From the IMG/VR virus record IMGVR_UViG_3300027759_000048: DNA of 64,000 nucleotides; one strand, 5' to 3'. The notes beneath the pieces are model-generated. The model made no database searches. It was not told where the DNA came from and saw nothing but the letters and a program-made list of their open reading frames with translations. The translations under genes and the position numbers were made by a program. The stretch comes from a virus. Shown in pieces: positions 9,537 to 53,552 of the stretch (positions are counted from its first letter, which is position 1; every line of letters begins with the position of its first letter).

Positions 9537-10147
9537 TGTATATTGAAAAGTATTCTGGTGATCTAGAAAAGTTACAGAAACATCTTTATCCTATCATCTA
9601 TGATATGGTTAAAGTTGCTAAAGATGAACTTGCTGGTAAACCAGATACTCCTAATCTTAATGTGTTGAAAGGAACATCTACAGCATTCATTGCTGATGGT
9701 AGTGGTAATAATATACACAAAAATCCTGAGTTCAAAGAGATCACAGATTTTGTTATTGAGGCAGCTAACAGATACTTTGATGTAGAAGGATTGCCTAAAG
9801 ACAAATTGCAGATTGCCATGGCTTGGGTTAATGTGTATCCTAAAGGATCATATATCAAACCACATTATCATACTTTTCTTCCTGAAGTCCGTAGTGCAGT
9901 ATTCTATCTAAAGAGTTATGACAACTCTGGCAAACTATTCTTGAAAGATCATCCGAAACCTTATCTGTTAAACGAAGGTGAAGTATGTTTCTTTCCCTCT
10001 GAAATAGAACACTGGACAAGTCCTAACGAAAACGATGAAGATAGAATCATGATCGGATATGATATCTATTACGGAACATTTACTGAAAGGCAACTAAAAT
10101 CCCTCTTAAAAAGAGTGTTTGAGCATTGGTATACAATATGGACTTGA
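9536..10147 (+). CDS. 2OG-Fe(II) oxygenase-like protein
   Basis: WVN...HYH...VFYL...FPS..EH.T...R.MI pattern (HxH...H...R). Confidence 0.8.
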   Translation: MYIEKYSGDLEKLQKHLYPIIYDMVKVAKDELAGKPDTPNLNVLKGTSTAFIADGSGNNIHKNPEFKEITDFVIEAANRYFDVEGLPKDKLQIAMAWVNVYPKGSYIKPHYHTFLPEVRSAVFYLKSYDNSGKLFLKDHPKPYLLNEGEVCFFPSEIEHWTSPNENDEDRIMIGYDIYYGTFTERQLKSLLKRVFEHWYTIWT

Positions 10148-10172
10148 CATTCCGGGCTTTTTATGCTATTAT
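10144..10172 (+). promoter_or_regulatory. sigma70-type early promoter
   Basis: TTGACA-17bp-TATTAT with extended TG; near-identical copy at 12914. Confidence 0.75.
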
Positions 10173-12913: not shown

Positions 12914-12942
12914 TTGACATTCCGCTCTTAGGATGCTATTAT
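12914..12942 (+). promoter_or_regulatory. sigma70-type early promoter (preceded by late-type TATAAATA at 12899-12906)
   Basis: TTGACA-17bp-TATTAT, same TTGACATTCCG...ATGCTATTATAA core as 10144. Confidence 0.75.
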
Positions 12943-36438: not shown

Positions 36439-37562
36439 CAGAGGAGAAGAAAGTGAAAAAGTCGGCTGTGGTTAGACGACCTAAATTTGCTGATGAAAAG
36501 TATCTTGGACCAGAACCCGAGATCACAGATAATTCCACACAATCAGAGTTGGCCAGGGCATACAACTGGTTCAACTATTTCTATACAAGTGACGATGCCA
36601 AGGCATTCACTATATCCTACCTAAAGAGTATCAAATATGACAAACATGTTATCTCAAAGCTGGGAGCAGTCAAGTCCGTCGATCTACACAATATCGGATG
36701 GAACTGCCGACTACTACACACCGGAAATACCTTGCCAGACGGTGAGTGGGATCGTATTGAAGAAAAACTTATACTCTTATCCTCAAAGGTGTTGGATGTT
36801 TCGGAGAGTGAAGAAGAACAACCTACACAAAAAGTTGTATCAATACAGGATCGTATCAATGCGAAAGCATCGGATCTAATTGGTGAACTTGAAGAAGAAA
36901 CCGATGTGTTCTTTCAAGAAGGAGTAATTCAGTTTGACATTAAGAAGTGGTCCATTGAGAAGGGAATTAAACCGCAAATTGCGAAGAGGATTGCAGAACA
37001 CTTCCGTCCTCAATACGAAGAGATCGTTGAAGCCCAAGAAGGCAAAGACGCCGACCTTGTTGAAGCGTATAAAGGATGGCGTAAGCCAGTTCTTAAAATC
37101 ATGGGTCTCTTTCTAAAGAAGATCATTGATCACATGACAGAGGTTGATGCTGCTGGTCAGGCTATTCGTAAGCCTCGTGCCAAGAAGATCAAGCCTGCCA
37201 GTGTTCTTGTATCCAAGCTACAGTTTCTACCTGAGTTCAAAGAACTAAATATCACCAGTGTCGATCCGAAAGGAATTATCAATGCTTCGCAACTTTGGGT
37301 TTTCAATCCTAAAACTCGCAATCTTTCTGTTTATCATGCCGTGGGTCGTTCGGGCCTTTCTGTCAGAGGGACTACGATTACAGGATATGATACGGATGCT
37401 TCCCTCACTAAGAAAGTCCGTAAGCCAGAGCAAGTCATACCTCAAGTAATGAATGCTGGTAAGGTTGATTTACGCAATATAATGAAGAACCTATCTACAA
37501 CTGAAAGCAAAGCCAACGGTCGTATCAACAAAGATACGATACTTTTGAGAGTGATCAAATAA
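36435..37562 (+). CDS. conserved T4-like hypothetical protein
   Basis: 375-aa ORF; YNWFNYFY, NGRINKDTILLR. Confidence 0.7.
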   Translation: MTEEKKVKKSAVVRRPKFADEKYLGPEPEITDNSTQSELARAYNWFNYFYTSDDAKAFTISYLKSIKYDKHVISKLGAVKSVDLHNIGWNCRLLHTGNTLPDGEWDRIEEKLILLSSKVLDVSESEEEQPTQKVVSIQDRINAKASDLIGELEEETDVFFQEGVIQFDIKKWSIEKGIKPQIAKRIAEHFRPQYEEIVEAQEGKDADLVEAYKGWRKPVLKIMGLFLKKIIDHMTEVDAAGQAIRKPRAKKIKPASVLVSKLQFLPEFKELNITSVDPKGIINASQLWVFNPKTRNLSVYHAVGRSGLSVRGTTITGYDTDASLTKKVRKPEQVIPQVMNAGKVDLRNIMKNLSTTESKANGRINKDTILLRVIK

Positions 37563-37687
37563 TGTGGAAGACAACTGAGATTGATGTAATCTGGACTTTT
37601 ATCTACACAGGAATGTTTGTTGGTGTCTTTACAATTGGACTTTTGCTGTGGGCTATGTATCACGATTTAAAAAATAAGGAATAACAA

Positions 37688-38083
37688 ATGACCGACAAGG
37701 TAATCGAGTTCCCAAAGCACAAAGTTGTTCGTGATATACCCGGTAATGTCTTAGAAGAAAGAGCAAGACGGGCTGATCAAAAGATGGCTGATGCTATTGT
37801 ATCCGATCTCACAGCTATTATATTAACAGAGTTAGATAACTACGATGTTAATATTGAGGAGGAATCTTTTGCCAAAGATGTTGTTCTGATGGTTGATACT
37901 CTAAGAGCCACAGTGTATCGCCAGTTTGGGTTTGAACATCACCTACATCCTTACATCGAAAAGAACATCAAAATCATTTCCAAGAAGGATGCGGAAGCAA
38001 TGGAAGACATGACCGAGGAGCAGATAAAGAAGGTCATTGAAGATATGATGAAATCTAAACTTGACAATGATGACGAAGAATGA
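37688..38083 (+). CDS. hypothetical protein
   Basis: AAGGA RBS; NVIEFP-like start (KVIEFPK). Confidence 0.6.
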   Translation: MTDKVIEFPKHKVVRDIPGNVLEERARRADQKMADAIVSDLTAIILTELDNYDVNIEEESFAKDVVLMVDTLRATVYRQFGFEHHLHPYIEKNIKIISKKDAEAMEDMTEEQIKKVIEDMMKSKLDNDDEE

Positions 38084-39629: not shown

Positions 39630-39711
39630 TTGTCAACAAATCTAGCCCTTGACATCTTCATCAAAAACATTATAATGATACATACTGAAACGTTGATGAT
39701 AGGAATACATC

Positions 39712-40248
39712 ATGTTGACCGCCAAAGATTATCTTTCAACCAAAGTTTGTAAGCAAGTTAACAAACAACTCGCTAATGATCGATATAAAGATTCCGCTTT
39801 TTTCTCTTTGAAAAATCTTTCTTCAAAGGTAAAAGGTGCTCAGTTTGAGCGTCTTTATCAAGAATACATGGAGTCCAAAGGCTGCGTCGTAGAAAAACCT
39901 TCTAATAAAAACCTTTCTCAACACAAATCTGATCATGATCGTATTGTTGATGGTCGTAAAAAAGAAATCAAAGGTTCTTTTCTATGGAATAGTGGAAGTG
40001 AAAAGCTGCAATTTCGTTGGCAACAAATCCGTCCTGGCCAAGATTATGATGATGTAGTTTTTCTTGCTTTCTTTCCTGATCGTCTAGAAATATATGAAGC
40101 GGACAAAGAAACTGTTCGTAGTGTTGTCGAGGTTCAAGATGAAAAAGGTAATTGGATACACAATCAACATGGTGGTAAACGTGTCAATTCAGGCACATTC
40201 TTTTTAGATGGCGTTCCTTCAGATTTTCCATGGATGAAACCAGTATGA
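39712..40248 (+). CDS. putative restriction endonuclease (PD-(D/E)xK)
   Basis: KG..FE...DHD...EIKGS; overlaps MTase start; own promoter TTGACA-16-TATAAT at 39649-39676. Confidence 0.6.
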   Translation: MLTAKDYLSTKVCKQVNKQLANDRYKDSAFFSLKNLSSKVKGAQFERLYQEYMESKGCVVEKPSNKNLSQHKSDHDRIVDGRKKEIKGSFLWNSGSEKLQFRWQQIRPGQDYDDVVFLAFFPDRLEIYEADKETVRSVVEVQDEKGNWIHNQHGGKRVNSGTFFLDGVPSDFPWMKPV

Positions 40249-40994
40249 TAACAAACATTGACTGTATTGAATATTTGAAAACGATTGATGATAATAGTGT
40301 GGATTTAGTTCTTACTGATCCTCCCTATTTCATTGGTTTTGATGGTGGTAAAGGTTGGGACTCTCAATGGGAGAATGAGAAGGAGTATCTTGATTGGTGT
40401 AACGTATGGTCTAGAGAGTGTGCTAGAATACTCAAACCAAACAGAATGATGATTGTGTTTGGAACTCTAAAGACAGATACGTTTATAAAGTATAAGCTAA
40501 ATGTCTTGAATGAGATAAAAGAACTGTCAGGTCAAAATGAGATCATATGGTCTTACAATTGGGGTGGCAGAACGAAAGAAAACTTTGCACGAAAGCACGA
40601 ATACGCCTGGTGCTATTCTAAAGGTCGTGACTTTTTGTTCAATGGTGATGATGTTAGAATTGAACGCAAACAAAAGGTCAACATAAGAACTGGTAAACCT
40701 TTTGAGAAAGGAACAATCCCAACTTGTGTTTGGGAAAAGAACAATCACACTACTAGCAAGGAGTATGTGAATTGGCATCCAACTCAAAAGCCTATAGAAA
40801 TACTAGAAAGACTTATAAAAGCCTACACTAATCCTGGTGATATAGTTTTAGATATCTTCAGTGGATCAGGATCAACAATGATTGCTACCAAAAAAAGTGA
40901 TAGGATTTTTATTGGTAGTGAAATTGATAAGGAGTATTATAACAAATCCTTGGAAAGATACAAAGATTTCTTTGAGAATACACTACCTATCTGA
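40245..40994 (+). CDS. beta-class N6A/N4C DNA methyltransferase
   Basis: DPPY ... HPTQKP ... DIFSGSGST order. Confidence 0.92.
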   Translation: MITNIDCIEYLKTIDDNSVDLVLTDPPYFIGFDGGKGWDSQWENEKEYLDWCNVWSRECARILKPNRMMIVFGTLKTDTFIKYKLNVLNEIKELSGQNEIIWSYNWGGRTKENFARKHEYAWCYSKGRDFLFNGDDVRIERKQKVNIRTGKPFEKGTIPTCVWEKNNHTTSKEYVNWHPTQKPIEILERLIKAYTNPGDIVLDIFSGSGSTMIATKKSDRIFIGSEIDKEYYNKSLERYKDFFENTLPI

Positions 40995-41078
40995 TAGACT
41001 AAGAGTTGTGCCAAAATAATACACCTCGACCACCAAAATAGTCCTTGACTTATTCCAGAAACCTGGTATAATAAAGGT

Positions 41079-41402
41079 ATGATCAAAATTAAACGCAAAT
41101 CCCGCTCTGACCGTAAACATCTGATTTACTCGTTGTCTGTAAACAACAAAGAGTATATCGGAGTGACGTTTGTAGACAAAGGCCGCATTAATGCGTCCTT
41201 AACTCGCCGCTGGAATAAGCATGTCAACCGTGCCTTGAATGAAGACAAAGGCTGGAAGCTATGCACCGCTATCCGTAAACACGGTGCCGACTCGTTTACA
41301 GTTAGTGTCTTAGAGGTCGTCCGTGGCAAGTCTGCGGCCCATATAAGAGAGAGGGAACTAATCCGTGACCGTAAGCCCAAACTCAACACCGACGTCCGCT
41401 AA
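41079..41402 (+). CDS. small GIY-YIG nuclease
   Basis: LIY...YIG...RW..H...E.ELI...LN. Confidence 0.7.
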   Translation: MIKIKRKSRSDRKHLIYSLSVNNKEYIGVTFVDKGRINASLTRRWNKHVNRALNEDKGWKLCTAIRKHGADSFTVSVLEVVRGKSAAHIRERELIRDRKPKLNTDVR

Positions 41403-41404
41403 GG

Positions 41405-41470
41405 TGCGTCAACTTGTCGCAGATGTTGCCAAACGATTGTCCTTGACTATTCCTCAAAACGTGGTATAAT
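41405..41470 (+). promoter_or_regulatory. early promoter cassette 1: palindrome + TTGACT-16-TATAAT
   Basis: TGCGTCAACTTGTCGCA (41405-41421), 21 bp, -35 at 41443, TG-extended -10 at 41465. Confidence 0.8.
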
Positions 41471-41495
41471 GATTATATAAACGATGGAGATAGAC

Positions 41496-41753
41496 ATGAA
41501 AAACTTCGCTCAAAGCACCTTCAACCCAACGACCGACCACAATGCTCGGTTCACTAAAAAGAACCTAGTTCTTAACACTAACACGGTTGATGCGCTATTG
41601 ACCTACATTGAGAATGGTGGTACAATTACGGTATGTAAGCCTGGTCGTAGGAATACTGCTAACACCTCGTTTCCTCTAGTCAAGGGCACTGTCGCTAACC
41701 GTGGTGCTAAACAAGTCAACCTTACCTCTGCTGGCATCAAAGCGAAAGGCTAA
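41496..41753 (+). CDS. hypothetical protein
   Basis: GGAG RBS; GGTITVC motif. Confidence 0.6.
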   Translation: MKNFAQSTFNPTTDHNARFTKKNLVLNTNTVDALLTYIENGGTITVCKPGRRNTANTSFPLVKGTVANRGAKQVNLTSAGIKAKG

Positions 41754-41841
41754 AACATGTTTGAACTTATCGTCCTTACTGTCTCGCTGGCTATTCCAGT
41801 TTCGTTCGCCCTTGTTGCTCTCTTATCTAACGAGGAATAAC

Positions 41842-42027
41842 ATGTCGGAAGTTTATGCTGTGATATGGTCTGTGCCATATGAGGGTGAAAACCTTATGGG
41901 TGTGTTTTCGGACTACGTGAAAGCTCGCCGATACGTGCTGGATCAAAAAGACGAAAACTTAGAAATCCGTAAGCTAGAGTTGAACAAGGTATATGAAGAC
42001 ATGTTTATTGTTGGGGAGACTGTGTAA
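41842..42027 (+). CDS. hypothetical protein (paralog of 42132)
   Basis: VYA.....YEG..L.GV. Confidence 0.6.
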   Translation: MSEVYAVIWSVPYEGENLMGVFSDYVKARRYVLDQKDENLEIRKLELNKVYEDMFIVGETV

Positions 42028-42131
42028 TGTTCAAAGATGATGAACAAATGGTCCAGTGCTTTGCGCTGTTCGCAATCCTTGTCGGCCTCGCTTTTGGCGT
42101 TGGGCTTATCGCATACTTTGGAGAATGATAA

Positions 42132-42347
42132 ATGGAAATGTCTGTATATGCTCTCTTTCATTGTATGCCTTATGAGGGTTCTTATCTTTTGGGCGCTTAC
42201 AAATATCTCTCTCAGGCTCAGGAAGCCGAATACGCCTATGGACTGGAAAATGCTGAGGTGGTGGATGGTCCTGAATGGACTGAGATCCGTGAGATCCTAT
42301 TAGGCGCTGCTCCTTCTTTTGATGCTGGCAAGATTGTGGAGGATTAG
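42132..42347 (+). CDS. hypothetical protein (paralog of 41842)
   Basis: VYA.....YEG..LLG. Confidence 0.6.
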   Translation: MEMSVYALFHCMPYEGSYLLGAYKYLSQAQEAEYAYGLENAEVVDGPEWTEIREILLGAAPSFDAGKIVED

Positions 42348-42348
42348 T

Positions 42349-42555
42349 ATGAATAATGCCATTCACTTTGTAGGGTTCAAAGATAACCGTTATAACACAG
42401 CCGTCAAGGTGTTTGGAACTCCTGACTTTATTCATAGGTTATGGGATCTTCGTGCCGTTAATGAGGTTATGGAAAACGATATAGTTATATTTGCTGATAA
42501 AGATGAAACACAGGCAATTGAAACATTTGCCTATGATGACTCGGCAAACTTTTAA
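42349..42555 (+). CDS. hypothetical protein
   Basis: GGAGG RBS; HFVGF...A..VFG.PDFIH..WD.RA. Confidence 0.6.
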   Translation: MNNAIHFVGFKDNRYNTAVKVFGTPDFIHRLWDLRAVNEVMENDIVIFADKDETQAIETFAYDDSANF

Positions 42556-42566
42556 GGAGATATAAA

Positions 42567-42737
42567 ATGGCTAAGGTAAAGACTTTTAATCTAACTATCT
42601 GGGCCGATGATGATGAGGAGTCTGATGCACACACTATTACATTTTATGGTATCTCAAGAATAGCGGCTTGTCGTTATATTGATTACTATCTAAAGGATCC
42701 AAATTATCTTACATGGTCAACTGTAGAAAACTATTGA
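42567..42737 (+). CDS. hypothetical protein
   Basis: AAGGAG RBS; 56 aa. Confidence 0.5.
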   Translation: MAKVKTFNLTIWADDDEESDAHTITFYGISRIAACRYIDYYLKDPNYLTWSTVENY

Positions 42738-42738
42738 T

Positions 42739-42813
42739 GTTCCGTGGGTCGGATGCTAAGGCGCAGGACTGCAAATCCTTGAGAACTCGGTTGAACTCCG
42801 GGACGGAACTCCA
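42739..42813 (+). tRNA. tRNA-Cys(GCA), atypical core
   Basis: Acceptor GTTCCGT/ACGGAAC, U73, CCA, anticodon loop CTGCAAA. Confidence 0.88.
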
Positions 42814-42814
42814 T

Positions 42815-42891
42815 GGTCTGGTAGTTTAGTTGGTGAAAACATCGCCCTGTCACGGCGAAGACCACGGGTTCGAGTCCCGTCCAGATCGCCA
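42815..42891 (+). tRNA. tRNA-Asp(GTC)
   Basis: TCGCC-CTGTCAC-GGCGA, TTCGAGT, G73, CCA. Confidence 0.95.
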
Positions 42892-42895
42892 ATTT

Positions 42896-42970
42896 GGTCC
42901 CATCGTCTAATGGTTAGGACAACGGCCTTTCACGCCGTCAATGCCGGTTCGAGTCCGACTGGGATCACCA
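42896..42970 (+). tRNA. tRNA-Glu(TTC)
   Basis: ACGGC-CTTTCAC-GCCGT, TTCGAGT, CCA. Confidence 0.93.
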
Positions 42971-42974
42971 ATAT

Positions 42975-43048
42975 GCGGAGGAAGTGTTACGGTAGCACGA
43001 TAGGCTTCCACCCTGTAAGCGTGGGTTCGACTCCCATCCTCCGCTCCA
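42975..43048 (+). tRNA. tRNA-Gly(TCC)
   Basis: Acceptor GCGGAGG/CCTCCGC, U73, anticodon loop CTTCCAC, CCA. Confidence 0.92.
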
Positions 43049-43065
43049 AGTTTACATACAGAGGG

Positions 43066-43131
43066 TGCGACAACTTGTCGCATCGTTGACAATTAGGTTT
43101 ACATTGACTTTTCCTATAGATGTGGTATAAT
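43066..43131 (+). promoter_or_regulatory. early promoter cassette 2
   Basis: Perfect palindrome TGCGACAACTTGTCGCA (43066-43082), 21 bp, TTGACT-16-TATAAT. Confidence 0.82.
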
Positions 43132-43160
43132 GATTATATAATCAGAAAGGAAATCTTAAT

Positions 43161-43394
43161 ATGAAACTTATCCCTCTTGGTTCAAACCAAAATCTCGTCC
43201 AACTCAATAGTGGAATCCAAGTTTTATTCTCTTACAAAACACCTGTCGCCGCTCATGTTCCTGGCGAAGGCTTCTTTAGAACCAATCACAATTGGTCTAG
43301 AACAACTAGTAAGCATATCAATAAGTGGCTTCGTGGTGCAATTGGTGTCGCTTCCGTTGATCAGTCTGTAATCGATAATATAGCGGGGTTGTAA
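43161..43394 (+). CDS. conserved small early phage protein
   Basis: GSNQ...LFSY.TPVAA...WS.TTSKHINKWL. Confidence 0.7.
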   Translation: MKLIPLGSNQNLVQLNSGIQVLFSYKTPVAAHVPGEGFFRTNHNWSRTTSKHINKWLRGAIGVASVDQSVIDNIAGL

Positions 43395-43395
43395 G

Positions 43396-43572
43396 ATGTC
43401 CCTTGTTTATAAAGAAATTGAGAAACTGGTTATTGAGATTGTGTCCTCGCCAGGCATCCATTTTGATAAACAGGTTCATGAATATGTCAATAAGCGTTCT
43501 TCTGTTCCGGTTAATAAGGAGACAATTGAGTTTATAGTTGATAAGTGGTTTTCTCTTGGCAATCATCATTGA
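43396..43572 (+). CDS. hypothetical protein (paralog of 43582)
   Basis: MSLVYKEIEKLV...SPGI..D..V..YVN.R.SV.V..ETIE. Confidence 0.6.
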   Translation: MSLVYKEIEKLVIEIVSSPGIHFDKQVHEYVNKRSSVPVNKETIEFIVDKWFSLGNHH

Positions 43573-43581
43573 GGTAATAAA

Positions 43582-43785
43582 ATGTCTAGAATGTCTGACT
43601 TGTATCTTGAGGTTCAGGAGTTGGTTGTTGATGCCGTGAGCACTCCCGGCATTGTGATGGATACCGACGTTTTGAATTATGTGAATGATCGGTGTTCGGT
43701 TGAGGTCGATCTTGAAACTATCGAGGCAATCTTGGATAGTTTCTTCGGTGAGGATTTCTGGCCAGAGGGCGTTGTCATTCAATGA
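43582..43785 (+). CDS. hypothetical acidic protein
   Basis: GAGGT RBS; MSRMSDL start. Confidence 0.65.
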   Translation: MSRMSDLYLEVQELVVDAVSTPGIVMDTDVLNYVNDRCSVEVDLETIEAILDSFFGEDFWPEGVVIQ

Positions 43786-43809
43786 CTGTAAACAGTTTAC
43801 ATCCAGGGA

Positions 43810-43875
43810 TGCGACAACATGTCGCACCTGTTGACAAACGATTTTCCTTGACATATTCCACAGACCTGCTATAAT
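43810..43875 (+). promoter_or_regulatory. early promoter cassette 3
   Basis: TGCGACAACATGTCGCA (43810-43826), 21 bp, TTGACA-16-TATAAT. Confidence 0.82.
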
Positions 43876-43909: not shown

Positions 43910-44440
43910 ATGGGTATCAATGCTACAAAATATCGTGACCGTTATATCAAGCGTGCCGCTCGGGTTCTTCCTGCTATTCAGCCAGGTGTCCCGTTTACTC
44001 CCGAAGCTATCGACCAGATCGTCGGTGGTGAGTATAGTTCCAAGTTTGTGTTCTATCTCCGTGAGCTAGGGTTTGAGTTTAGTAATAACAAAGATGGTCG
44101 CAAGATTGTCTCCTACACTCTTATCAAAGAGCCTGCCGATGCTGCGGCTATTCGTGGTGCTACTGCTTCCGCTTCTCGTGGTGCTGCTAAGGCTCCTAAG
44201 GTTAAGGCTGCTAAGGTGGCTAAGCCTGCTAAGTCAACCAAGTCAATTGCTGAAATCAAGGCAGCTAATCTTGCCAAGCTAAAGGCTGTTGGTGCTAAAC
44301 AGACCAAGGTTGCAAAGCGTGTCCGTGAATACGATGATGTGACCGAGCAATTTGGTAACACTGGTGAGGTTGGTACCTCATTCAATGTTGACCGTGACTG
44401 GGATAGCATTGAAGGTCTTGATCTTCAGAAACTTCTCTAA
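43910..44440 (+). CDS. putative DNA-binding protein with Ala/Lys/Pro-rich linker
   Basis: Compact N-domain, AAKAPKVKAAKVAKPAK stretch, acidic tail. Confidence 0.6.
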   Translation: MGINATKYRDRYIKRAARVLPAIQPGVPFTPEAIDQIVGGEYSSKFVFYLRELGFEFSNNKDGRKIVSYTLIKEPADAAAIRGATASASRGAAKAPKVKAAKVAKPAKSTKSIAEIKAANLAKLKAVGAKQTKVAKRVREYDDVTEQFGNTGEVGTSFNVDRDWDSIEGLDLQKLL

Positions 44441-51721: not shown

Positions 51722-53230
51722 ATGACAAAGATAATCACAAGAGATTGGATCCGAGATGACATTGTGATCCATGCTGATGTCAGAAAAGCAGATGTTTTGG
51801 TTAACACATATACTAAACAAGACCTCTGCGAGTTTATCAATTACTGGAAACTCAAACTTCTATCGCATGGTGCTAAACGTGGTGATAAGATTGGCACATG
51901 TATCATGCCATCTGACATTCATTCAACTGCTATCAAGTTTGCTGCCTTTGAACTTGGTATGAGTATGGTCGTTCTACACAGACCAAACAACGAGAAAGAA
52001 TGCCAGAGTCCTAAGAGCAATTGTCATTTGCCTCTAGACTTTATGATCTTCTTTACATCTTATCTGGCTAGTCCTATTCTTTCTACTGCTATGAAACATT
52101 ACCAAAAGAACTCCAAGGTTGTTTTGGGTTATGGTCCAATTGAATGGGAGACACAGAGAAAGAAGTTTAGATCAACTGAAGAAACACCAATACTAGCACA
52201 GCCAGGTGATATTGCTCTATTGTGTAATAGTAGCGGCACAACTGGCACTCCGAAACTAATAGCACACTCGCACGAATACCTGTATAATCTCTCTAGTAAT
52301 AACGGGCAAGAACTGGGCTATGAACCAGATGACCATTATCTTCATTTGTCCTCACTTAATCACGGAGCGACATTATCACTTGTTCTACCGTCTTTTAGAA
52401 TATGTAAGAACCACTATTTCTATAACAGCATTTCTGGTAAAGGTAAGTTGCCTGGTGACCAGCAATATGATGAGTATGAAAGATTTGTCAATGATTGTGT
52501 CAAGCATGGTATAACAAGAATATTCTGTACCCATGGCGGTGTGCTAGATGAAATCATTAATCATATGGCTAATCGTGATATCAAACTGCCTAACACAAGT
52601 GTAATGATACTTTCATTCATCAGTCCTGAATGGTGTAAGGCAATCAAAGAAGGCAGTCTGAAAAGTATCTATAGTCCATTTGGTTGTAGTGAGGTATGTG
52701 GTCCAGTGTTTATGATGTGGCTCAACTCTGATAATGTGGATAACTTTAATCCAAAGTATCTCGGCAAGCCAACTGTTGATAGTTTCTATAAGACTAGAAT
52801 AGCTGATGGACGTATCTACACAGCCACGCCATACACAGATGAGATTTGTTTTGATGATATTGTTGATGAGAAGCCAGATGGCTATTACTTTGTCGGTAAG
52901 AATAGATTACAAAAGATAAACGATATTGATATCAATCCACTGGACATCATTGAGATAGTGGAGAAGTATACCACAAGATATCAGTTTGAGATATACATTG
53001 ATGAGGTATATAATCAGTTGTATGTTCTTACCTCTGATGTTGTAGCATATGAACAAAGAAGCCATATCAAGGAAGAGATAGACACATTCTATCATGGAAA
53101 TGTTACTCTTGCCGATGTTATACTTGAGCCAGAACTATATGATGCCACTATCAGCAACAAAGCAGATAAGGACAAGTTAGCTGGTATGGTTGAACGATTC
53201 CGCTTGACAAACAAAAATAATGCTGTATAA
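51722..53230 (+). CDS. ANL-superfamily AMP-binding (adenylate-forming) enzyme
   Basis: SSGTTGTPK (A3), FGCSE (A5), DIV (A7), INP..I (A8), NKADK (A10-like). Confidence 0.8.
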   Translation: MTKIITRDWIRDDIVIHADVRKADVLVNTYTKQDLCEFINYWKLKLLSHGAKRGDKIGTCIMPSDIHSTAIKFAAFELGMSMVVLHRPNNEKECQSPKSNCHLPLDFMIFFTSYLASPILSTAMKHYQKNSKVVLGYGPIEWETQRKKFRSTEETPILAQPGDIALLCNSSGTTGTPKLIAHSHEYLYNLSSNNGQELGYEPDDHYLHLSSLNHGATLSLVLPSFRICKNHYFYNSISGKGKLPGDQQYDEYERFVNDCVKHGITRIFCTHGGVLDEIINHMANRDIKLPNTSVMILSFISPEWCKAIKEGSLKSIYSPFGCSEVCGPVFMMWLNSDNVDNFNPKYLGKPTVDSFYKTRIADGRIYTATPYTDEICFDDIVDEKPDGYYFVGKNRLQKINDIDINPLDIIEIVEKYTTRYQFEIYIDEVYNQLYVLTSDVVAYEQRSHIKEEIDTFYHGNVTLADVILEPELYDATISNKADKDKLAGMVERFRLTNKNNAV

Positions 53231-53236
53231 TAAATA

Positions 53237-53530
53237 CTATGCTGAGGTCGTTGAGAGGAACGGCATAGACGTTACGGACGGCGGTTCGATTCCGCCCGCC
53301 TCCACCATAGTAACATCGGACACGGTTCAATTCCGTAATAAGTCCTATAATAGTCTTTAGGCACCCGATGTTACTATGATGGGGGCGACCAGGGTTTCGA
53401 CGGGCGTAGTAAGGGTTCAAGGAGACCGAAAGCAAACGTTAGGTGCTAACGATAACTTTGCATCATTTGATCTTGCTCTAGCAGCATAATCATTGGGTGG
53501 GCCACCAGCCTAGAAACAGAAGTGGTGGCA
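53237..53530 (+). ncRNA. ssrA: two-piece (circularly permuted) tmRNA, tag ANDNFASFDLALAA
   Basis: Acceptor piece with T-arm ends CGCCTCCACCA (53307); coding piece starts GGGGGCGA (53381), giving a G3:U70 pair; tag ORF 53445-53489; promoter TTGACA...TATAAT at 53204-53231; outer ends approximate. Confidence 0.92.
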
Positions 53531-53552
53531 ATTTTACATTATGAGGAACAAA

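Follow-up and report, generated by a model that had tools for sequence, protein, structure and literature searches.

A 64,000-nucleotide stretch of viral DNA from a novel T4-like phage (IMG/VR record IMGVR_UViG_3300027759_000048; the whole stretch is called the window below) was found to carry three copies of a 17-bp palindrome, TGCGAC-N5-GTCGCA in its core, each at the same distance upstream of a sigma-70-type early promoter. The feature is real and evolutionarily constrained. The way in which it varies among related phages argues for a promoter-linked DNA site that is recognised by its sequence, and not for a generic hairpin, and we give roughly even weight to the reading that this is a site for a host response regulator of the RegA type. 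From the sequence we infer the host (an alphaproteobacterium with the RegB-RegA system, RegBA), the binding of the protein and the direction of its effect.

Palindromes and early promoters in the window

The palindromes and the promoters that they accompany are as follows:

41405..41421, + strand: palindrome copy 1, with a T at position 5 of the promoter-distal arm that gives an uncompensated mismatch
41443..41470, + strand: sigma-70-type early promoter 1 (TTGACT, 16 bp, TG-extended TATAAT)
43066..43082, + strand: palindrome copy 2, a perfect 7+3+7 repeat, 17 nt after the last tRNA
43104..43131, + strand: early promoter 2
43810..43826, + strand: palindrome copy 3
43848..43875, + strand: early promoter 3, matching the consensus at 12/12 positions, with TG extension
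41007..41023, + strand: decayed palindrome, keeping 10/17 consensus positions, at the 21-bp offset to the promoter of the GIY-YIG nuclease gene

An earlier note, made from the letters alone, had claimed three exact palindromes with one shared geometry, and both claims were borne out. A pattern search of the window matched copies 1 to 3 only, and no further 17-mer site appeared in the 64 kb when up to 3 mismatches were allowed. By chance 0.46 matches would be expected, and in 100 shuffles the count never came up to that of the real sequence. The order of elements is identical in all three copies (palindrome, 21 bp, TTGAC(T/A), 16 bp, TG-n-TATAAT), and the cassettes form a family of 66-nt direct repeats with 70–76% identity. 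With an assumed transcription start 7 nt after the -10 hexamer, the palindrome is centred at approximately -64. The end of the upstream gene lies 2, 17 or 24 nt away.

The earlier note was also right about the fourth site, which it had described as a decayed copy; its offset to the promoter (41045) is that of the three intact copies. "Decayed" is the appropriate word because the orthologous copies in front of the same GIY-YIG gene are intact palindromes in related phages (L038:4552, L003:6758, L022:7000 and G001:23444). The other promoters that it had named (10144, 12914, 17135, 28295 and 34981) do have 17-bp spacers and are free of the box. Two of these box-less promoters (10144–10172 and 12914–12942) share a longer word, C-TTGACA-TTCCG ... 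TG-CTATTAT-A..GCATA; as this word recurs in the cassettes of relatives, promoter bodies are repeated even where the palindrome is absent.

Conservation among related phages

We searched for relatives by scanning IMG/VR with the 17-mer and, in a second scan that was free of bias towards the palindrome, with the protein encoded at 43910–44440 as anchor. The clade comprises at least about 30 IMG/VR contigs, ranging from 93% nucleotide identity down to approximately 36–50% protein identity, and includes one complete genome of 174.5 kb (G001). The window and these relatives gave a comparative set of 51 non-redundant cassettes, to which the counts below refer.

The arms, TGCGAC and GTCGCA, are the most conserved part of the cassette, above even the -35 box, while the centre and spacer vary freely. 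In cassettes with the 21-bp spacing, 39 in number, the information per position came to 1.77 and 1.95 bits in the two arms, 1.41 bits in the -35 hexamer, 0.83 bits in the three central bases and 0.72 bits in the 21-bp spacer. The A after the left arm and the T before the right arm are kept in 47 of the 51 copies. Copy 1 is itself maintained with its mismatch, the T at position 5 being retained in its orthologues in L053 and L069.

Changes in one arm were not answered by changes in the other: there were no compensatory changes among approximately 26 arm variants. Pair 5/13 is A-T in 32 copies, T-T in 17, G-T in 1 and A-A in 1, and all seven changes at pair 3/15 are uncompensated. The GG immediately before the palindrome, at positions -2/-1, is conserved (1.74 bits) but its would-be pairing partner is not (0.5 bits). 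Since arm changes go uncompensated and the partner of the GG is not conserved, the palindrome appears to be read by its sequence and not to be a helix kept by pairing.

The distance from palindrome to -35 box falls into a few classes: 21 bp in 39 copies, 20 bp in 1, 10 bp in 4 and 0 bp in 5, which accounts for 49/51 copies (three spacing values, namely one of the 39 and two outliers, were assigned by eye). These classes place the palindrome centre at approximately -64, -54 and -44, one helical turn apart, and spacer length is kept despite widely differing spacer sequences between cassette subfamilies. A position upstream of the -35 box and on the same helical face is compatible with contact to RNA polymerase. 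As the distance to the -35 box is fixed and that to the upstream gene end is variable, the palindrome belongs functionally to the downstream promoter. The -35 box of the relatives is often weak, with only TTG invariant, as is the case in activator-dependent promoters.

It is very improbable that the repeat is due to chance or is a purely historical duplication without function. Such a reading could point to the fact that there are only three copies in the window and that the cassettes are related by descent. However, it would have to account for the shuffling result, for the 5 palindrome sites in G001 against 0 for a reversed control pattern, and for arms that persist in dozens of copies although the neighbouring proteins of the phages concerned are only 36–60% identical.

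Match to RegA-family sites

The match to the RegR/RegA/PrrA motif which the earlier note had reported is stronger than it claimed. The phage core equals the optimum of SpdR from C. crescentus, whose best recognition sequence as derived by electrophoretic mobility shift assay is the perfect palindrome C-TGCGAC-N5-GTCGCA-G (PMC4830024); SpdS-SpdR are homologues of RegB-RegA (PMC6530869). The core is also identical to strong R. capsulatus RegA sites found by chromatin immunoprecipitation sequencing (ChIP-seq), for example that at ccoN, where the peak contains GCGAC-N5-GTCGC; several of the RegA sites have the inner A...T (PMC5359404). Compared to the published consensus sequences, the phage site fits that of RegA fully, that of PrrA with one mismatch and the RegR box at 9/11 specified positions. 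The helix-turn-helix (HTH) is 100% identical in RegA, PrrA and RegR, including the recognition helix, and regulators of this family usually bind upstream of the -35 box (PMC5506826).

A phage-borne copy of such a regulator is unlikely, because the complete relative G001 was searched for a Fis-type HTH_8 protein and encodes none. A literature search for phage promoters with RegA/PrrA sites returned nothing relevant.

The same 17-mer was seen in unrelated GC-rich viral contigs. Among the matches listed, the GG/CC flank is present in 11/25 distinct plus-strand sites checked, and TTGAC follows at 0, 20 or 21 bp downstream in L026:1561, L045:3137, L055:10240, L005:2412 and L027:4725. The terminase-based relatives of these contigs have mixed hosts (Pseudanabaena, Bradyrhizobium, Acetobacter and Sinorhizobium). 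These matches are suggestive of a host-factor site, or of wider use of the box, and we do not count them as evidence.

Signs of the host

An alpha-type transfer-messenger RNA (tmRNA) in the phage and in G001 is a sign which, at the level of sequence, points to an alphaproteobacterial host. The window encodes a permuted two-piece tmRNA at 53200–53532 that scores 55.6 bits with the Rfam alpha_tmRNA model, which is above the cut-off and better than other clan members; it has its own consensus promoter at 53204 and its tag reads ANDNFASFDLALAA. The counterpart in G001 (37146–37895) scores 51.4 bits, and when the model was run on 14 control genomes it was positive in Caulobacter only. The -35/-10 pattern of the clade (C-TTGAC, 16–17 bp, C-TAT-type) presumably resembles the rhizobial consensus.

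Recombination of the cassettes

Comparison with L038, which is 93% identical to the window, showed a replaced segment bounded by two promoters:

39649..39676, + strand: box-less consensus promoter, the left bound of the segment replaced in L038
41045..41072, + strand: early promoter of the GIY-YIG gene, with the right-hand breakpoint of the replacement 7 nt upstream

In L038, 3.2 kb of other DNA takes the place of window positions 39716–41037. On the left the break falls just after the promoter at 39649, and homology returns 7 nt before the -35 box at 41045. The genes replaced (39712–40994) are an open reading frame (ORF) of unknown function and an N6/N4 DNA methylase; L038:1395–4582 stands in their place and includes two further cassettes. 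Upstream of its GIY-YIG gene L038 has a chimeric cassette, in which the GIY-YIG leader is fused to the promoter body of the window's 41405 cassette. Further indels adjoining cassettes were found in L069 and L087.

These features are those of the cassettes named PeSL (promoter-early stem-loop), which are known in the T4-type phages RB49/phi1, PST/T4 and nt-1/KVP40 (Arbiol et al. 2010, PMC2839356; Comeau et al. 2014, PMC4122927). A strong sigma-70-like early promoter lies within the repeat and a stem-loop-capable sequence adjoins it (weakly so in copy 1), a Shine-Dalgarno (SD) sequence and start codon stand at its end, the setting is a hyperplastic region of small ORFans, and the breakpoints of indels and replacements coincide with the cassettes. 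We are confident that the cassettes are PeSL-like in build and behaviour. The earlier note had offered PeSL-like recombination cassettes as an alternative to a regulator site, and for architecture and recombination this holds, given the L038 breakpoints and the chimera. As it holds alongside the RegA-type match, the two readings overlap and do not compete.

In most relatives a conserved ATAGACTA-type word is found just upstream of the palindrome (window 40993–41002 and, for example, L001:3695–3710 and L086:1485–1500). It contains stop codons in two reading frames, so that translational stops are part of the cassette itself. It should also be noted that two cassettes of G001, at 141231 and 155225 (L085 and L086), lie far outside the hyperplastic region, and that one of these, a hairpin with a T run that stands 10 bp ahead of a consensus promoter, has the classic look of a terminator.

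Weighing of the readings

Several observations weigh against a RegA-type site. The outer flank of the phage site (position -1) is G and not the C of the SpdR consensus, and a motif match does not prove much by itself, since ChIP-seq of PrrA in vivo brought out no strong motif (PMC4263372). Activation may be unnecessary, because the window promoters are close to consensus (11–12/12 matches) with an extended -10. The T-variant arms are all promoter-distal, which may reflect shared descent, and the cassette copies may have been homogenised by recombination. Among cultured alphaproteobacterial T4-like phages, Cr30 and vB_OspM_OC are without the box and the counts in phiM12 and RHph_I1_18 are near the level of the reversed-pattern control, so that the box is not general in T4-like phages of Alphaproteobacteria. 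When the tmRNA was used to look for the host, by a 28-mer exact scan of bacterial genomes and by BLAST against 401 Pseudomonadota genomes, only universal T-arm and acceptor-end matches were returned. Lastly, a hairpin is possible in isolation for all 51 palindromes and a T tract of terminator grade (at least 5 T in the 8 nt after the stem) is present in 7 of them, so that a role at the level of RNA is conceivable.

In its pure form, a PeSL reading would make the palindrome a hairpin, in RNA or in a single strand, whose role is to end or attenuate transcription from upstream or to stabilise the 3' end of the mRNA or tRNA before it, and which offers homology for cassette recombination. Common descent and gene conversion between copies would then explain why its sequence is constant, and the match to a RegA site would be coincidental. 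We consider this unlikely, although a good deal speaks for it. The layout (stem-loop after a stop codon, T-rich stretch, sigma-70 promoter, SD, ATG) and the small-ORF hyperplastic region match those of PeSL, and published PeSL stems likewise have a group-specific consensus (PMC2839356, PMC4122927). The L038 replacement breakpoints and chimeric cassette are as it would predict. Copies 2 and 3 fold well, at approximately -14 kcal/mol with z of -2.8 to -3.5, and the T-run copies of relatives, which fold at -15 to -23 kcal/mol, look like true terminators. All four copies with 10-bp spacing are among the 7 with a T run, which there fills the spacer. Examples of T-run copies are G001:23444 and G001:141231. 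In some relatives the palindrome and T run probably act as an intrinsic terminator as well.

Termination cannot, however, be the common constraint on the element. A T tract is absent from 44/51 copies, and a terminator scan of the window called none of the three copies, whose tails have at most 3 T in 8. A pure stem-loop should also show pairing-preserving changes, of which there are none in the arms. Copy 1 folds at only -5 kcal/mol in isolation and forms no hairpin in its 46-nt context, yet its half-sites, stem mismatch included, are kept in L053 and L069. The spacing is fixed in helical-turn steps to the downstream -35 box and not to the upstream gene, and gene conversion alone would not leave the arms constant while the centre and spacer diverge freely. 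A canonical intrinsic terminator is not supported for the window copies, as they have no U tract and no terminator-scan call.

The conserved sequence and phasing would apply equally to an operator for a protein other than RegA, which could be a clade-conserved phage regulator, made early or delivered with the virion, or a different host factor such as another regulator with a Fis-type HTH. The conserved GG flank lies outside the SpdR consensus, the box is restricted to the clade and absent from the cultured alphaproteobacterial T4-like phages, and the region has many ORFans of no known function, all of which would suit such a protein. Nevertheless we give it a low probability. Besides the lack of a Fis-type HTH in G001, no DNA-binding domain was recognised in ten neighbouring proteins scanned, an activator made by the phage would have to be packaged in order to act on immediate-early promoters, and there would be no explanation for the exact identity with the optimum of the RegA family.

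We therefore favour a site for a RegA-type regulator because of the selection at sequence level, the helical phasing, the copy that barely folds and yet is kept, the exact match to the optimum and the alphaproteobacterial signal. The earlier note had gone further and placed the early genes under host redox control, a reading that finds partial support. The motif match, sequence-level selection, helical spacing and alpha-type tmRNA all speak for this part of its claim; the near-consensus promoters speak against it.

Genes of the region

The genes that lie downstream of the cassettes, all on the same strand, are:

41079..41402, + strand: stand-alone GIY-YIG nuclease gene (107 amino acids, aa), flanked on both sides by cassettes in every relative examined
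41484..42737, + strand: tightly packed small ORFans downstream of promoter 1
42739..43048, + strand: tRNA cluster (Asp, Glu, Gly and one weaker tRNA-like hit)
43161..43785, + strand: three small ORFs (77, 58 and 67 aa) downstream of promoter 2
43910..44440, + strand: Lys/Ala-repeat protein (176 aa, AAKAPK-type repeats) downstream of promoter 3

The window has a GC content of approximately 40%. Among its products are a DNA polymerase of the T4 type, which shares 49% identity with the cyanomyovirus enzymes, ribonucleotide reductase and T4-like structural proteins. A nucleotide search of cultured phages with the region gave no match, so that no cultured phage is close by nucleotide sequence, and a search with one cassette gave only six sub-significant partial hits (E 0.3; Prochlorococcus and Bacillus phages). 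The stretch from 39.4 to 46.1 kb is a typical hyperplastic region, with a DNA methylase, the GIY-YIG nuclease, many ORFans and the tRNA cluster.

The GIY-YIG nuclease has no recognisable DNA-binding domain and is kept in all relatives examined; from its size and early position we take it to be closer to T4 endonuclease II than to a homing enzyme. The tRNA cluster is probably co-transcribed from promoter 1, which is plausible in view of the close packing of the genes and the lack of a predicted strong terminator. A fourth tRNA-like gene heads the cluster (42739–42810); it scores 35 bits with Rfam, just above the cut-off, and ARAGORN makes no call. The 176-aa Lys/Ala-rich protein is conserved throughout the clade but falls into no family of Pfam or PHROG, and it has a cassette just upstream in most orthologues examined. 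It may be a histone-like early DNA-binding protein.

Proposed mechanism and comparison with known systems

In the mechanism that we propose, the palindromes would be the upstream element of a PeSL-type family of early-promoter cassettes shared by an uncultured T4-like clade. The palindrome would most likely act as double-stranded DNA, as a predicted high-affinity site for the host's response regulator of the RegA/PrrA/ActR/SpdR family (with a Fis-type HTH), and its placement at approximately -44, -54 or -64 would keep it on a single helical face with respect to the -35 box. This regulator would modulate a subset of early promoters, probably upward when RegB/RegA is active, that is with a reduced quinone pool, low O2 or in stationary phase. 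The genes affected would be small takeover ORFs, the GIY-YIG nuclease, the Lys/Ala-rich protein and probably the tRNA cluster. The fullest form of this proposal is that a clade of lytic T4-like phages of Alphaproteobacteria has built the RegB/RegA (SpdS/SpdR) optimum into a mobile early-promoter cassette and so tunes a subset of its takeover genes and tRNAs to host respiration, which we put forward tentatively, as a possibility a little short of even.

If this is true, strictly lytic phages would sense the energy state of the host at the first step of infection by means of a mobile promoter module, and a newly acquired gene would inherit control by host state whenever a cassette recombines in front of it. 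If it is false, it would still be the case that PeSL stems can come under selection for their sequence, for which the published PeSL model has no explanation. The DNA-binding helix of the regulator is identical across model Alphaproteobacteria, so that the reading can be checked with standard proteins. Known already are PeSL as promoter-plus-terminator units that shuffle T4-like genes, and host-regulator sites for phosphate and nitrogen in cyanophages; what is new is a PeSL-like "stem-loop" whose evolution resembles that of a DNA site for a protein and whose sequence is the optimum for a global redox regulator.

Compared to the boxes of RegA, PrrA, RegR, ActR and SpdR, the phage palindrome has the same half-sites, 5-bp spacing and inner A...T, and a location upstream of the -35 box (PMC4830024, PMC5359404, PMC5506826). 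It differs in being a predicted site in a lytic phage genome and not part of a host regulon, in its outer flank, and in being a perfect or near-perfect palindrome where host RegA-family sites are degenerate. With rho-independent terminators it shares a GC-rich inverted repeat that directly follows a gene and, in the 7 clade copies mentioned, a T run, whereas the three window copies are without T tract or scan call and the stem is invariant and does not covary.

As in PeSL, a stem-loop-capable sequence is followed by a T/A-rich stretch, sigma-70-like early promoter, SD and ATG between small ORFans of a hyperplastic region, and the cassettes mark points of insertion, deletion and replacement between relatives and occur as chimeric copies. 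Unlike in PeSL, there is one fixed stem sequence without covariation that is better conserved than the promoter, the distances to the -35 box are quantised in helical turns, a T tract is mostly absent, the stem is identical to a host response-regulator site, and a minority of early promoters carry it.

Zeng and Chisholm in 2012 and Sullivan et al. in 2010 are said to have described PhoB "pho boxes" upstream of phage pstS and phoA in cyanomyoviruses, and also NtcA sites. What is shared with these sites is that a T4-like phage puts the site of a host regulator before its own genes, so that expression tracks the state of the host. The cyanomyovirus sites control auxiliary metabolic genes, whereas here the candidate site is in a repeated mobile cassette before ORFans and tRNAs and the regulator would be a redox and energy sensor. 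The palindrome cassette thus unites two known ideas, the PeSL cassette and the host-regulator site in a phage genome.

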